Shown here piece after piece: positions 11,653 through 57,525 of a stretch of DNA of 64,000 nt. Source of the DNA: Clostridia bacterium (GTDB lineage Bacteria; Bacillota; Clostridia; Oscillospirales; Acutalibacteraceae); assembly GCA_900767025.1 (NCBI GenBank), contig CAAFXS010000014.1, positions 1,238 to 65,237 of the forward strand, written 5' to 3'. Position numbers and translations under genes: made by a program. Under the pieces are notes generated by a model. The model was not told the origin of the DNA and ran no database searches. It saw nothing but the letters and a program-made list of their open reading frames with translations. How positions within the stretch are numbered: the stretch's first letter is position 1; the number at the start of each line of letters is the position of its first letter.

Positions 11653-12687
11653 TTACAGCAGTGACTGCTGACCATCCTGCTCAAAGCCCAGATGCCTGTA
11701 AGCAAGAGCGGTTGCACACCTGCCTCGGGGCGTCCTTGAAAGAAAACCGATTTGCATTAAATACGGCTCATAAACATCCTCAATGGTTACGGCCTCCTCG
11801 CCGATGGATGCGGCTATGGTTTCAAGCCCCACAGGACCGCCGTTATAATTTTTTATCATTGCAGTGAGCAGAACTCTGTCAATATTATCAAGTCCAAGCT
11901 CATCAATTTCCATTCTGCCTAAAGCGTCCGTTGCCGCCTCGTAGCTGATAACGCCGTCATACTTAACCTGTGCAAAATCACGGCTCCTTTTAAGCAGACG
12001 GTTGGCAATACGGGGTGTTCCCCTTGAACGGGAGGCAATTTCCATAGCACCCTTTTCGTCAACAGGAATTTCAAGTATTCCCGCACTTCTTTTAACTATT
12101 GTTGCAAGCTGTTCGGGGGTATACATTTCAAGCCTGAAGATAACGCCGAATCTGTCACGCAAGGGAGCGGAAAGCTGACCCGAACGGGTGGTTGCACCGA
12201 TAAGTGTGAAATGAGGAAGGTCAAGCCTGATTGACCTTGCAGACGGGCCCTTGCCGATAATAATATCAAGAGCGCCGTCCTCCATTGCAGGATACAAAAC
12301 CTCCTCAACCTGACGGTTAAGCCTGTGAATTTCGTCGATGAAAAGCACATCGCCCTCCTGCAAATTAGTAAGCAGTGCCGCCAAATCCCCCTGCTTTTCG
12401 ATTGCAGGACCCGATGTAACACGAATGTTAACACCCATTTCGTTGGCAATAATTCCTGCAAGAGTTGTTTTGCCCAGACCCGGAGGGCCGTAAAGAAGCA
12501 CATGATCAAGCGCCTCTCCTCTTCCTCTTGCCGCCTCAATATATATTTTAAGGTTTTCCTTGATTTTATCCTGCCCGATATATTCTTCAAGAGTTTTAGG
12601 TCTTAAAGAATTTTCAATATCGTTATCCTCCGGGGTAAAATCGGAGGTAATTATTCTGTTTTCAAAATCCATTTCGGTTTCCTGCAT
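11653..12687 (-). CDS. ruvB: Holliday junction branch-migration ATPase RuvB
   Basis: [14 protein letters not shown] Walker A, RuvB-family arrangement, 344 aa. Confidence 0.92.
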
Positions 12688-12699
12688 CGGTTATACCTC

Positions 12700-13305
12700 C
12701 TAAAGATTTTTTGAAAGCTGTTTCAAGCCCAGCCTAATCATTTCATCAACGGAAAGTGATTTATCCATAGCACCAACTGCAACTGACGCATCACTGCGTG
12801 AAAATCCAAGTACCACAAGTGCATCCACCGCCTCGGCGGAATTTGAGCTTTCTGCCACAGAGGAAACGGCGGTTACAATTTCGGAATTATCACCGGTTGC
12901 AATAGCACCCATTTTGTCTTTAAGCTCAAGGACAACTCTTTCAGCGGTCTTTTTGCCAACGCCCTGTGCACGGGTAATTGACTTGGCATCCCCCGATGCA
13001 ATACAAAGTGCAAGCTTATCGGGTGTCAGCTCCGAAAGAATGGCAACAGCCGCCTTGGGACCTATGCCTGAAACGGTGATAAGGAGTTTAAATGCATCAA
13101 GCTCTGCAAGAGTGGCAAAGCCGTACAAATCCATAGCGTCCTCACGAACGGCAAGGTGGGTATAAACATTAACCTCACTGCCTGTTTTGCCTATATTCTT
13201 AACGGTATTAAGAGTGGTAAAGCACTTAAAGCCTACGCCGCCGCACTCAACTACTATGTAATTAACATCGGAAACGGTTAATGTTCCTTTAAGGTTATAA
13301 AGCAT
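12700..13305 (-). CDS. ruvA: Holliday junction DNA helicase subunit RuvA
   Basis: RuvA length and position between ruvC and ruvB. Helix-hairpin-helix GIGPKAA and GVGKKTAERV motifs. Confidence 0.88.
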   Translation of the reverse strand: MLYNLKGTLTVSDVNYIVVECGGVGFKCFTTLNTVKNIGKTGSEVNVYTHLAVREDAMDLYGFATLAELDAFKLLITVSGIGPKAAVAILSELTPDKLALCIASGDAKSITRAQGVGKKTAERVVLELKDKMGAIATGDNSEIVTAVSSVAESSNSAEAVDALVVLGFSRSDASVAVGAMDKSLSVDEMIRLGLKQLSKNL

Positions 13306-22466: not shown

Positions 22467-22555
22467 GCAGAGGTATCGAAGTGGTCATAACGAGGCGGTC
22501 TTGAAAACCGTTTGTCCGAAAGGGCGCGTGGGTTCGAATCCCACCCTCTGCGCCA
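22467..22555 (+). tRNA. tRNA-Ser (anticodon TGA), class II with long variable arm and encoded CCA
   Basis: Acceptor GCAGAGG/CCTCTGC; anticodon stem-loop GCGGT-cTTGAaa-ACCGT; long variable arm; T-arm GTGGG-TTCGAAT-CCCAC; G73-CCA. A TTGACA-17 nt-TAATAT promoter lies at 22425-22453. Confidence 0.85.
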
Positions 22556-22596: not shown

Positions 22597-22667
22597 ATTA
22601 TTCACTCTTCACTTTTCACTATTAACTAAAAAGATATACTACGATGCACTACGCATATGAAATAATC

Positions 22668-22736
22668 TTTGCGCAGTAAAAAAAGAAATGACACCGCAAG
22701 GGTGTCATTTCTTTTTGGCGCAGAAGGAGAGACTCG
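22668..22736. repeat. Distal copy of a 69-bp direct repeat (tRNA-Ser-GCT 3-prime end plus its terminator hairpin)
   Basis: TTTGCGCAG-TAAAAAAAGAAATGACACCGCAAGGGTGTCATTTCTTTTT-GGCGCAGAAGGAGAGACTCG. It is identical to 22832-22900, which overlaps the real tRNA 3-prime end. Confidence 0.8.
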
Positions 22737-22831
22737 CCCGGGTAAAGATAAATCTTTCCCCGGCACGCACGCAGACAACGAAACAGTCCACCGGACTGTT
22801 TCTTCGCTTCGCGATGTCCTGTTCGAGTCTC

Positions 22832-22900
22832 TTTGCGCAGTAAAAAAAGAAATGACACCGCAAGGGTGTCATTTCTTTTTGGCGCAGAAGGAGAGACTCG
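22832..22900. repeat. Proximal copy of the 69-bp direct repeat (contains the terminator hairpin at 22842-22880 and the tRNA-Ser-GCT 3-prime end)
   Basis: Identical to 22668-22736; period 164 bp. The hairpin GAAATGACACC-gcaag-GGTGTCATTTC with flanking A/T runs acts as a bidirectional terminator. Confidence 0.8.
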
Positions 22901-22970
22901 AACTCTCGCGCCGGTTGCCCGACCTACGCCCTTAGCAGGGGCGCCTCGTCACCAACTTGAGTACTTCTGC
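22880..22970 (-). tRNA. tRNA-Ser (anticodon GCT), class II with encoded CCA
   Basis: Reverse complement reads GCAGAAG-TA-...-CGCCC-cTGCTaa-GGGCG-long variable arm-GAGAG-TTCGAGT-CTCTC-CTTCTGC-G-CCA. Confidence 0.85.
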
Positions 22971-23096
22971 AAGCTGACGGGTTTTACCTGTCAAGTATTT
23001 TGCACTTTCCGTGCGTGATTTACTTTATCATAACTTTTAAAAAAAGTCAAGAGAGAAATATAAATTATTTAAACAAATTAGGATTTGCAGTGGTGT

Positions 23097-23175
23097 TATC
23101 GTAGTGGGCGGATATTATCCGCCCGAATTGGCGGGCGACTGATAGTCGCCCCTACGGTTGTTCATAACAACCATT
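23097..23175 (-). repeat. REP/MITE-like structured repeat, copy 1 (inverted relative to copies 2 and 3)
   Basis: Its reverse complement differs from 49122-49197 by only 1-2 substitutions. Nested hairpins: GGCGACtatcaGTCGCC and GGGCGGATaatATCCGCCC, closed by CGTAGGGG...CCCCTACG. A flanking GGTTGTT-cat-AACAACC hairpin is also present. Confidence 0.75.
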
Positions 23176-57058: not shown

Positions 57059-57215
57059 GACTTTAGTTTATCATAAGGCTTTAAGAAAGTAAAGTAATGA
57101 ATAACCATAATGTACTAAAGTCACACATCGCGTCGCAAAAACATCTTTAGTTGAGTACAGAGCCAGAAAAGGCAGTACAATAACTGTGTTACCTACCTGT
57201 TACCAACGAGTTACC
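57059..57215. promoter_or_regulatory. Upstream region of the GH29 gene with two sets of repeats (candidate transcription-factor sites)
   Basis: GACTTTAGT (57059-57067), its inverted copy ACTAAAGTC (57114-57122) and TCTTTAGTT (57145-57153). Three direct repeats GTTACC(t/a)AC at 57188, 57199 and 57210, with exact 11-bp phasing. Confidence 0.35.
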
Positions 57216-57242
57216 AACTAAGCAGAAATATTTATAATTTAT

Positions 57243-57356
57243 ATCTAACAACTGCGGGGGCAGGACCGAGGGAAAGGCAGTAGCTACGAAACAGTCCACA
57301 GGACTGTTTCTCCCAAATTGCAAAGCAATTTGGAGCCTCCTGTCGCAGATTCGTGT
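57243..57356. repeat. Structured non-coding element in the 3-prime flank of tRNA-fMet
   Basis: A 14-nt direct repeat of the tRNA 3-prime end, TGCGGGGGCAGGAC (57243-57256; the tRNA copy is at 57408-57421). Hairpin GAAACAGTCC-aca-GGACTGTTTC (57278-57300). Hairpin CCAAATTGC-aaa-GCAATTTGG. A degenerate inverted copy of the tRNA variable-loop/T-arm, GTCGCAGaTTCGtGTCCTGC (57332-57351). Confidence 0.6.
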
Positions 57357-57370
57357 CCTGCAATTATATG

Positions 57371-57400
57371 AAAAAAAGCACACCGAATGGTGTGCTTTTC
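57371..57400 (-). terminator. Rho-independent terminator of tRNA-fMet (bidirectional)
   Basis: AAAAGCACACC-gaat-GGTGTGCTTTT. Confidence 0.75.
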
Positions 57401-57402
57401 AA

Positions 57403-57478
57403 TGGTTGCGGGGGCAGGACTCGAACCTGCGACCTCCGGGTTATGAGCCCGACGAGCTTCCAACTGCTCTACCCCGCG
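57403..57478 (-). tRNA. Initiator tRNA-fMet (anticodon CAT)
   Basis: Reverse complement reads CGCGGGG-TA-GAGC...-TCGGG-cTCATaa-CCCGG-AGGTC-GCAGG-TTCGAGT-CCTGC-CCCCGCA-A-CCA. It has the C1.A72 mismatch and three G-C pairs in the anticodon stem, both diagnostic of the bacterial initiator. Confidence 0.88.
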
Positions 57479-57497: not shown

Positions 57498-57525
57498 ATT
57501 ATAACAGGAATTTTTTAATTGTCAA
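57498..57525 (-). promoter_or_regulatory. Sigma-A promoter of tRNA-fMet
   Basis: On the minus strand: TTGACA, 16 nt, TATAAT, about 20 nt upstream of the tRNA 5-prime end. Confidence 0.6.

Follow-up and report, generated by a model that had tools for sequence, protein, structure and literature searches.

What has placed a second, partial copy of a tRNA gene behind the intact gene, with a series of hairpins between the two? The question is raised by the initiator tRNA-fMet locus of a Clostridia bacterium (Acutalibacteraceae; assembly GCA_900767025.1, contig CAAFXS010000014.1), which lies within the 64,000-nt stretch of DNA that was analysed as a whole and is referred to below as the window. A first-pass annotation had noticed, in the 3' flank of this gene, a terminator, an inverted copy of the T-arm, two hairpins and a 14-nt direct repeat of the tRNA 3' end, each of which was confirmed at the position it had been assigned. 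We found that the structured segment is a member of a family of elements, here called PAL elements after the hairpin that defines them. In the best-supported reading, PAL elements are non-autonomous and site-specific, and replace the end of the gene that they target. To the proposal that positions 57253-57399 hold a minimal, 'empty' member of such a class of small non-coding integrative cassettes, with a folded, attC-like site served by a trans-acting enzyme, we assign a probability of about one half.

The intact gene, which would be both target and platform of the element, is a tRNA-Met(CAT) gene with an encoded CCA end at 57403-57478 on the minus strand (ARAGORN; 63.7 bits with the Rfam tRNA model). 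Direct reading identifies it as the initiator by its C1xA72 mismatch and its GGG/CCC anticodon stem, and it is preceded by a promoter matching the consensus at 12 of 12 positions (TTGACA, 16 nt, TG-TATAAT; 57498-57525, minus strand). All parts of the element described next were assigned to the same strand. The 3' strands of the T-stem and of the acceptor stem, within the functional tRNA, make up the first copy of the 14-nt repeat (R1, GTCCTGCCCCCGCA; 57407-57420), and by analogy with other loci this end of the gene was probably supplied by the element. It is followed by a terminator at 57371-57399, seen by direct reading as the inverted repeat AAAAGCACACC-ATTC-GGTGTGCTTTT (the hairpin proper at 57374-57399) with a T run after it on the minus strand. 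A simple terminator scan gave this structure no score; with an A run before it and a T run after it, it could terminate transcription in both directions. The terminator occupies the cargo ('X') position of the cassette. Behind it lies A' (57342-57361; GCAGGACACGAATCTGCGAC in the tRNA sense), a degenerate inverted copy of the variable loop and T-arm that is 90% complementary over 20 nt to 57414-57433 (z = 10.6 against shuffles) and that, on direct reading, lacks G53 and A58.

Next come, in order, the 5' strand of a stem P2 that closes a three-way junction in the predicted folds (57334-57342; CAGGAGGCT in the tRNA sense), the 9-bp hairpin H2 (CCAAATTGC-TTT-GCAATTTGG, with the loop in the tRNA sense; 57313-57333), the 10-bp hairpin PAL (GAAACAGTCC-TGT-GGACTGTTTC, loop likewise; 57288-57310), the 3' strand of P2 (57276-57285; AGCTACTGCC in the tRNA sense) and a linker (57267-57275; TTTCCCTCG in the tRNA sense). 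In the folds, the TCG of this linker pairs with the CGA of A'; the fMet-type homologues L042 and L017 have CTCA/CTCG at the linker position (loci outside the window are given by L numbers). R2, the second copy of the repeat, occupies 57253-57266. Its identity to the tRNA ends at A72, the discriminator and CCA not being conserved in the window, and in L042 and L017 the corresponding R2 retains ...CGCAACCA and is then followed by a terminator. We interpret R2 as the displaced original 3' end of the tRNA. The two copies of the repeat (TGCGGGGGCAGGAC; 57253-57266 and 57407-57420) are the sole exact ones in the 64 kb, with 0.35 matches expected by chance when up to two mismatches are allowed. The coincidence that the first-pass annotation had considered as an alternative was ruled out by these counts together with shuffles and the family of PAL loci described below.

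A promoter-like sequence on the plus strand (TTACCA, 16 nt, TATAAT; 57211-57238; 10 of 12 positions matching) is located in the host flank and directed into the element, of which it may or may not be a part; no equivalent was found at the other loci, where a host terminator abuts R2. Together with a terminator capable of acting in both directions, it would yield a transcript of ~155 nt that runs antisense to the element.

Both strands of the window element fold alike in the predictions, into the stems P1 and P2 and a three-way junction that holds H2 and PAL (z = -5.1 for DNA, -3.9 for the sense RNA and -5.6 for the antisense RNA). P1 is formed between the 5' part of A' and the start of R2 (GCAGGAC/GTCCTGC plus CGA/TCG), and the inverted T-arm copy contributes one of the two strands of this basal stem. 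The fold as a whole is a conserved branched hairpin with the junction at its base.

The window contains two copies of the 23-nt PAL motif and no more, one behind tRNA-fMet and one behind tRNA-Ser(GCT), as compared with 0.01 occurrences expected. The second element (22666-22900, minus strand; tRNA gene at 22880-22970) is composed of R1 with its terminator (22830-22900), A' (~22821-22840), PAL (22780-22802), an extra hairpin (~22737-22763) and R2 with a copy of the terminator (22666-22736). Its direct repeat measures 71 bp (22666-22736 = 22830-22900), spanning the tRNA 3' end, the terminator and 11 bases more, and bounds a 93-bp insert that carries PAL. The Ser element folds with z = -6.7 and scores 37.6 bits with a covariance model made from the subfamily to which the fMet element belongs (subfamily A, see below). 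Only ~27 nt, consisting of PAL and its immediate flanks, are common to the two window copies. The suggestion that the fMet locus mirrors the tRNA-Ser(GCT) locus thus stands as far as the family is concerned and has to be corrected below that level: the two copies belong to one family and to different subfamilies, and are not the same element.

The family itself was delineated by exact-match scans for the PAL stems (GAAACAGTCC-NNN-GGACTGTTTC), which recovered the hairpin in 21 viral contigs and at least 118 genome stretches. With at least 139 further loci and 22 tRNA species followed by PAL, the idea that one type of element or event had affected two tRNA genes of the window proved correct well beyond that pair. 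Most hosts are gut or rumen Clostridia (Oscillospiraceae, Ruminococcaceae, 'Eubacterium' metagenome-assembled genomes (MAGs), Acutalibacter, Faecousia, Christensenella and Agathobacter); Burkholderiales, Alphaproteobacteria, Adlercreutzia, a Saccharibacteria MAG and others were also found. Among the matches listed, 34 pairs of tRNA and PAL lie no more than 160 nt apart, representing 22 anticodons and 15 amino acids, with PAL positioned 13-116 nt behind the tRNA. The loop of PAL reads NGN in the tRNA sense in 33/34 of these tRNA-proximal copies, so that the element has one orientation relative to the gene. The usual order is the tRNA (T-loop to CCA being R1), a terminator with an AT-rich spacer, A', the core with PAL, and R2, which in turn is usually followed by a terminator unlike the first. 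Partial duplicates of tRNA 3' ends likewise turned up repeatedly, at an R1-to-R2 spacing of 149-199 bp; the repeats extend over 14-22 nt from the T-loop to CCA, and are longer when the terminator, too, is common to both copies.

Several subfamilies can be distinguished, which have only PAL and the topology in common. The window fMet copy is a member of subfamily A, with clear homologues at the tRNA-fMet ends of L042 and L017. Members of the same subfamily also lie behind protein-coding genes, namely those for rubrerythrin (L024, L032, L070 and L109), gyrB (L088) and a sugar-kinase-like gene (L086), and a PAL copy of related type is located behind gyrB in L116. At these protein-gene targets, the last 19-100 nt of the coding region are repeated, the repeat closing at or just past the stop codon. 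Mirror-image insertions were found in the D-loop of a tRNA-Thr gene in the Saccharibacteria MAG (L095, 850-1079) and of a tRNA-Gly gene in another genome (L105, 7640-7940); here the upstream region and the 5' part of the tRNA are repeated, so that the gene left intact is the one lying downstream. In L095, the anticodon-stem region was additionally found upstream in inverted form. One intact copy of the target gene is kept in every case.

The stems of the core covary. When 15 distinct cores of subfamily A were aligned, with trimming and with a fit to the structural model, 95.3% of the P2 and H2 cells paired and 10 pairs changed on both sides; for P2, both sides are changed in 5 of 7 pairs. None of 500 shuffles reached the observed values on four of the five measures used (57/500 did so for the count of further pair types), and slid controls of the same alignment gave only 30-50% pairing. 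Over the family as a whole H2 varies in length, and its arms covary. Additional PAL copies from the same loci, which had not been selected by the search, carry symmetric compensatory changes (e.g., GAAACGGTCC/GGACCGTTTC and AAAATAGTCC/GGACTATTTT), arguing that PAL is selected as a hairpin. Its most constant part is the tip CAGTCC-NGN-GGACTG, and a GTAG motif on the 3' side of PAL is confined to subfamily A.

A' follows the target. In the clean tRNA cases, the best inverted match between the interior of the element and the target near the start of the repeat reached z = 3-14 against shuffles. A' of subfamilies B and C consists essentially of the complement of the repeat's first 9-12 nt, and that of subfamily A reaches a further 10-16 nt past the junction on its left side; where a protein gene is the target, A' matches coding sequence located 3-50 nt to the left of the repeat. 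Behind gyrB, A' tracks the host sequence in two species (GAACCTCGCCGT in L088 vs. GAGCCCCGCCG in L116), which points either to selection for pairing or to regeneration of A' from the target. P1 consists of A' and the first 7-13 nt of R2, and the boundary of the repeat is always found at the inner end of P1, from which we infer a crossover near the base of this stem. An integron attC site has this same topology, with R'' and R' paired and the crossover close to the foot of the stem. Two possible origins of A' were rejected. Snap-back copying of a terminated tRNA transcript would fit the Ser and Burkholderiales copies and not those behind rubrerythrin genes and gyrB, and a retrovirus-like primer-binding site would not fit the majority of A' segments, which have no complement of the CCA end.

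How far one unit extends can be read at tRNA-Pro, where one element, with the terminator AAAAAGAGATACC..GGTATCTCTTTTT directly after CCA, stands before three different downstream flanks (two distinct host terminators and one flank that diverges within the terminator loop). Because the same unit precedes three flanks, the unit includes the first repeat and its own terminator, and R2 is the displaced end. In several loci the repeat runs through the terminator, over 42-87 nt (71 nt at the window Ser locus). Its length depends on the partners: it continues through the terminator where donor and recipient had this in common, and ends at CCA elsewhere, as expected from the single-crossover integration of a small circle. 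At one and the same tRNA-Pro-linked site, related contigs differ in having one, two or three units in tandem. Single units occur in L003, L005, L006, L010, L015, L016 and L019, and tandem arrays of two to three units of 159 or 175 bp in L002 (10700-11180), L004 (1250-1760), L013 (11270-11750), L007 (10275-10640) and L011 (11860-12200). The boundary that is repeated in the 159-bp arrays corresponds to the 3' half of the terminator and not to the tRNA end.

Units can also carry a gene. In L027 (4539-6060), tRNA-Ser(CGA) is followed by an R-terminator-A'-junction unit, then by a second unit in which R is followed by a promoter, an open reading frame (ORF) of 306 aa, A' and the junction, and finally by R and a host terminator, the two structured ends being nearly identical. 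In PADLOC, the 306-aa ORF has a match to PDC-S02, a candidate defence family (E = 1.8e-30). This was the only clean gene-carrying unit found; units that contain a terminator and no gene, among them the two window units, resemble empty cassettes. Behind another tRNA-Ser(CGA) gene, in L063 (1298-7137), two PAL units enclose a 5.3-kb block with three ORFs, one ORF encoding a Schlafen/AlbA_2 + HATPase_c_4 protein and two having no Pfam match. This block could be a larger cargo or an unrelated island. Kilobase cassettes between other distant PAL pairs (L110, L137, L093 and L036) were considered and rejected, since housekeeping genes are found inside and the PAL copies are therefore dispersed ones.

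A mechanism consistent with these features would run as follows. The unit would comprise a copy of the target end, a cargo position, A', the three-way junction (P2, H2 and PAL) and a short linker; for the fMet unit, the target-end copy would be the T-loop/T-stem through the acceptor 3' strand, and the cargo would be the terminator only. In circular or single-stranded form, the unit would recombine with the tRNA gene at the T-arm region, bringing with it a new tRNA 3' end and terminator, and shifting the old tRNA 3' end to the far side, where it would be seen as R2. The recombination site would be the folded strand, in which P1 copies the target; A' and P1 would confer target specificity, and PAL would be a constant handle for a protein supplied in trans. 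The anatomy, the family with its distribution and orientation, the covarying stems, the fit of A' to each target, the transport of the terminator, the arrays and one gene-carrying unit are observed; that the unit integrates as a circle or single strand, that PAL serves as a protein handle and that the enzyme exists is what we infer. A more speculative version, which we put forward tentatively, is that PAL elements are programmable, a constant protein-binding scaffold with exchangeable A' and R segments guiding insertion by a trans-acting and perhaps widely conserved enzyme through base pairing. They would then perhaps represent a nucleic-acid-guided, integron-like system, with the ends of tRNA and housekeeping genes as platforms, by which defence genes could be ferried.

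Set beside known systems, PAL elements would best be classed as att-site-only integrative cassettes, and they fail defining features of each system compared. Integron cassettes similarly combine cargo with a structured site, attC, which is an imperfect inverted repeat forming a (branched) hairpin and whose outermost stem uses sequence beyond the junction (R''/R' in attC; A'/R2 in PAL elements), and integrons likewise stack empty and gene-carrying units beside a fixed platform. However, PAL elements do not have the RYYYAAC/GTTRRRY core, their junctions are formed by target-specific stems (T-arm, gyrB, rubrerythrin) that copy each target over 7-13 nt or more, and they possess a sequence-conserved hairpin whereas attC sites have none. 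Furthermore, their platform is the end of a tRNA or protein gene rather than attI, with no intI nearby, and their hosts are mostly Clostridia. With phages and islands that integrate into tRNA genes, and with cis-mobilizable elements (CIMEs), they share the T-arm junction, the restored tRNA 3' end and the displaced end present as a direct repeat; as in CIMEs, there is no internal recombinase, so that mobilisation would be in trans. Unlike these, PAL elements measure 100-200 bp rather than kilobases, use one structured core for more than 20 targets and contain no recognised arm-type sites, and the core covaries, indicating that it is selected and not decayed.

Palindrome-associated transposable elements (PATEs) of the IS200/IS605 insertion sequences (IS), and repetitive extragenic palindromes (REPs) with their associated tyrosine transposases (RAYTs), resemble PAL elements as small non-coding hairpins present in many copies per genome, with target-matching bases beside the hairpin, which is probably read single-stranded. 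PAL, in contrast to PATEs, is a single hairpin module with long target-end repeats, no target-adjacent motif and no linked Y1 transposase; in contrast to REPs, it has no GTAG at the expected place (where present, the motif is 3' of PAL), and no RAYT was seen near the copies. The bridge (seek) RNA of IS110/IS1111 elements offers a further parallel, at the level of DNA sequence, in that a constant scaffold is combined with variable target-matching segments, one a direct and one an inverted copy. PAL elements differ from these by having no adjacent IS110-type (DEDD/Tnp) recombinase gene, by much longer matched segments and by repeats of 14-100 nt vs. 2 nt. Finally, they are unlike miniature inverted-repeat transposable elements (MITEs) in that their inverted repeat (A'/R) is target-derived and the length of the direct repeat, from 14 to ~100 nt, is not fixed.

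Rfam was queried at gathering score and at E values up to 10 with both window loci, and also with 19 loci that represent all subfamilies; only tRNAs and a glycine riboswitch reached the gathering score, and no convincing weaker match fell on the element. A tRNA-like or tmRNA gene on the opposite strand was also considered and rejected, as ARAGORN finds none and the T-arm copy has lost conserved bases. One unannotated 62-nt match was present in an annotated phage collection and none in a plasmid collection, and we found no description of PAL elements, by sequence or by concept, in a searchable library of the literature that is itself incomplete.

Several observations weigh against the integrative-cassette reading. 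For about one half of the PAL copies no flanking repeat could be detected, and Proteobacteria additionally have PAL at the tip of simple hairpins and within the genes of insertion sequences; PAL may be a module more general than the tRNA-linked cassette. The match of A' to the left of the junction is only 1-3 nt in subfamilies B and C, which means that a guiding role of A' beyond P1 is not general. The invariance of PAL is partly due to ascertainment, exact stems having been the search query, and the G-U and A-C pair counts are too few to assign the folding strand or to distinguish RNA from DNA. No recombinase, transposase or reverse transcriptase was linked to the genome copies, no integrase adjoins either window locus or the L027 array (whose flanks encode a beta-galactosidase, a SnoaL and an Rrf2 protein), and clustering of 1037 ORFs within 2.5 kb of PAL yielded only phage integrases, from viral contigs, and housekeeping genes. 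The integrases near viral PAL copies belong to prophages that use the same tRNA-Pro. These prophages, with tyrosine or serine integrases, sit between tRNA-Pro and the element and have a core copy and arm sites of their own, and are hence neighbours of the element rather than its machinery.

A further point of this kind is that neither an empty site nor a circle junction was found in flanking-protein, metagenome and viral scans, so that mobility is argued from comparative anatomy alone. Used to look for an orthologous empty site, the flanking proteins led back only to the same contig. A metagenome scan with ThrE gave relatives at no more than 34% identity, except for one 57-residue fragment at 46%; and viral scans for tRNA-Pro joined straight to the host terminator found filled sites only. 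No kilobase-scale version with an integrase between both ends was found either.

Could the same features have arisen without a cassette? The alternative that survives best, although we consider it unlikely, is that the segment is an RNA element, i.e., a structured trailer or small RNA made by terminator read-through or from the opposite strand. An RNA-binding protein would hold the junction and PAL, base pairing of A' with the upstream tRNA or mRNA, in its 3' region, would control processing or stability or act as a decoy, and the repeats would be by-products of the gene's spread. The covarying stems and compensatory PAL variants suit such an RNA equally with single-stranded DNA, and the antisense RNA gives the most stable fold (z = -5.6), yet none of the subfamilies matches an Rfam family, and the window T-arm copy, without G53 and A58, is not maintained as a tRNA-like arm. 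A source of transcription is suggested in the window by the plus-strand promoter-like site pointing into the element and by a terminator that could work both ways; at other loci, however, the host terminator abuts R2, leaving no conserved promoter on either strand, and in the sense direction the terminator separates the tRNA from the element. The constant location behind a gene end in the same orientation would be natural for a trailer, and A' tracks the upstream gene as selected pairing between transcripts would predict, but the target-end repeats, the arrays and the gene-carrying unit are left unexplained by an RNA role itself.

Somewhat less probable, in our estimate, is a miniature HUH-type single-strand transposon, similar to IS200/IS605 PATEs or REP/RAYT, in which a transposase encoded elsewhere binds PAL, and A' pairs with the target strand and picks the cleavage site as an extended form of the 4-nt guide of IS608. 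In its favour are the hairpin with compensatory changes and a conserved tip, the numerous dispersed intergenic copies per genome free of repeats, the insertions within IS genes, the target-matched bases adjoining the structure and the GTAG behind PAL in subfamily A. The arrangement of these parts is nevertheless a different one: IS200/IS605 elements carry a hairpin at each end and do not duplicate their target, whereas PAL is one module associated with long repeats, and the GTAG that follows PAL in subfamily A is 3' of the palindrome, whereas that of REPs is 5' of it on the active strand. In addition, no Y1 transposase gene recurs near PAL copies.

The least likely explanation, to which we give very little credence, is a scar, i.e., the fused attL/attR of a prophage or integrative element that lost its interior, which would make it a decayed and inactive cis-mobilizable remnant: direct repeats of tRNA 3' ends from the T-loop on are the usual signature of integrase-mediated tRNA-gene insertion, prophages do use the same tRNA-Pro sites and the window R2 without CCA is a sign of decay, but random loss of internal sequence would not have produced one and the same structured core of 100-130 nt, with covarying stems, at more than 20 different targets in several phyla, the arm sites and core copy of the prophages between tRNA and element mark the latter as separate, and long versions with an integrase between the ends were not found.

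If the integrative-cassette reading is true, a cassette system requiring no more than ~100 nt of structured DNA or RNA together with a copy of the target is present in many gut Clostridia and in some Proteobacteria. Such a system would account for a class of unexplained partial tRNA duplications beside intact tRNA genes and constitute a new route for parking small cargo, e.g., a candidate anti-phage gene, behind essential genes that remain undamaged. It would also point to an enzyme whose specificity is perhaps set by base pairing instead of protein-DNA contacts, and which would be of interest to mobile-element biology and genome engineering. Even in the most conservative reading, PAL elements are a new family of structured repeats that annotation pipelines and searches for tRNA islands should recognise.

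The tRNA-Pro sites harbour further arrangements around the elements. In L018 (681-2195, 2100-2140), L009 and L062 (~6700), prophages with large serine recombinases are inserted in tRNA-Pro just upstream of the element, and the recombinase ORF of these prophages runs into a tRNA-like 3' fragment. A second PAL unit of L062 is truncated within H2 by foreign sequence. In L003, paired direct repeats CGGCGTTGCAGTACT...TTGCAGTAC (12597-12630 and 12875-12905) flank a tRNA-Pro fragment together with the PAL unit, beside a tyrosine integrase gene, and the same repeats were found in L002, L005, L006, L010, L015, L016 and L019. They look like arm-type integrase sites, and are present on both sides of the fragment and unit.

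Other PAL copies lie in different surroundings. In a Rhodobacterales sequence (L092, 2200-2300), PAL with short flanks separates the DUF4096 part of an IS5-family transposase from its DDE part, as an insert of ~43 nt with no obvious duplication, and in another (L036, 300-340) PAL, likewise with short flanks, is found inside an IS3-type integrase-core (rve) ORF. In a Novosphingobium sequence (L041, 1494-1545) and in L138 (2126-2190), PAL tips a longer hairpin, GTTTTGCGG...CCGCAAAAC, which has no repeat and begins directly after the CCA of the tRNA, at the usual place of the terminator. Clusters of PAL-like hairpins, spaced at 48-174 nt, occur in L054 (2050-2360), L044 (4860-5040), L099 (5407-5554) and L132 (6888-7046); some of these hairpins are in opposite orientation, those of L044 adjoin a hairpin CCGGAACTTCCC-GAA-GGGGAGTTTC, and the four clusters look more like mosaic repeat clusters than cassettes.

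In the window itself, the tRNA-Ser(GCT) gene (22880-22970) is convergent with a tRNA-Ser(TGA) gene (22467-22555), with 325 bp between them. The 3' halves of the two genes are 83% complementary over 42 nt, and a PAL unit is present at the GCT gene only. Nearby, at 23085-23165, lie two REP-like palindromes, GTAGTGGGCGGATATTATCCGCCC and GGGCGACTGATAGTCGCCCCTAC, whose ends are GTAG/CTAC; similar units, GTAGGGGCGACC...GGTCGCC, adjoin PAL in L055, L067, L072 and L078, and these palindromes form a second repeat family, separate from PAL.

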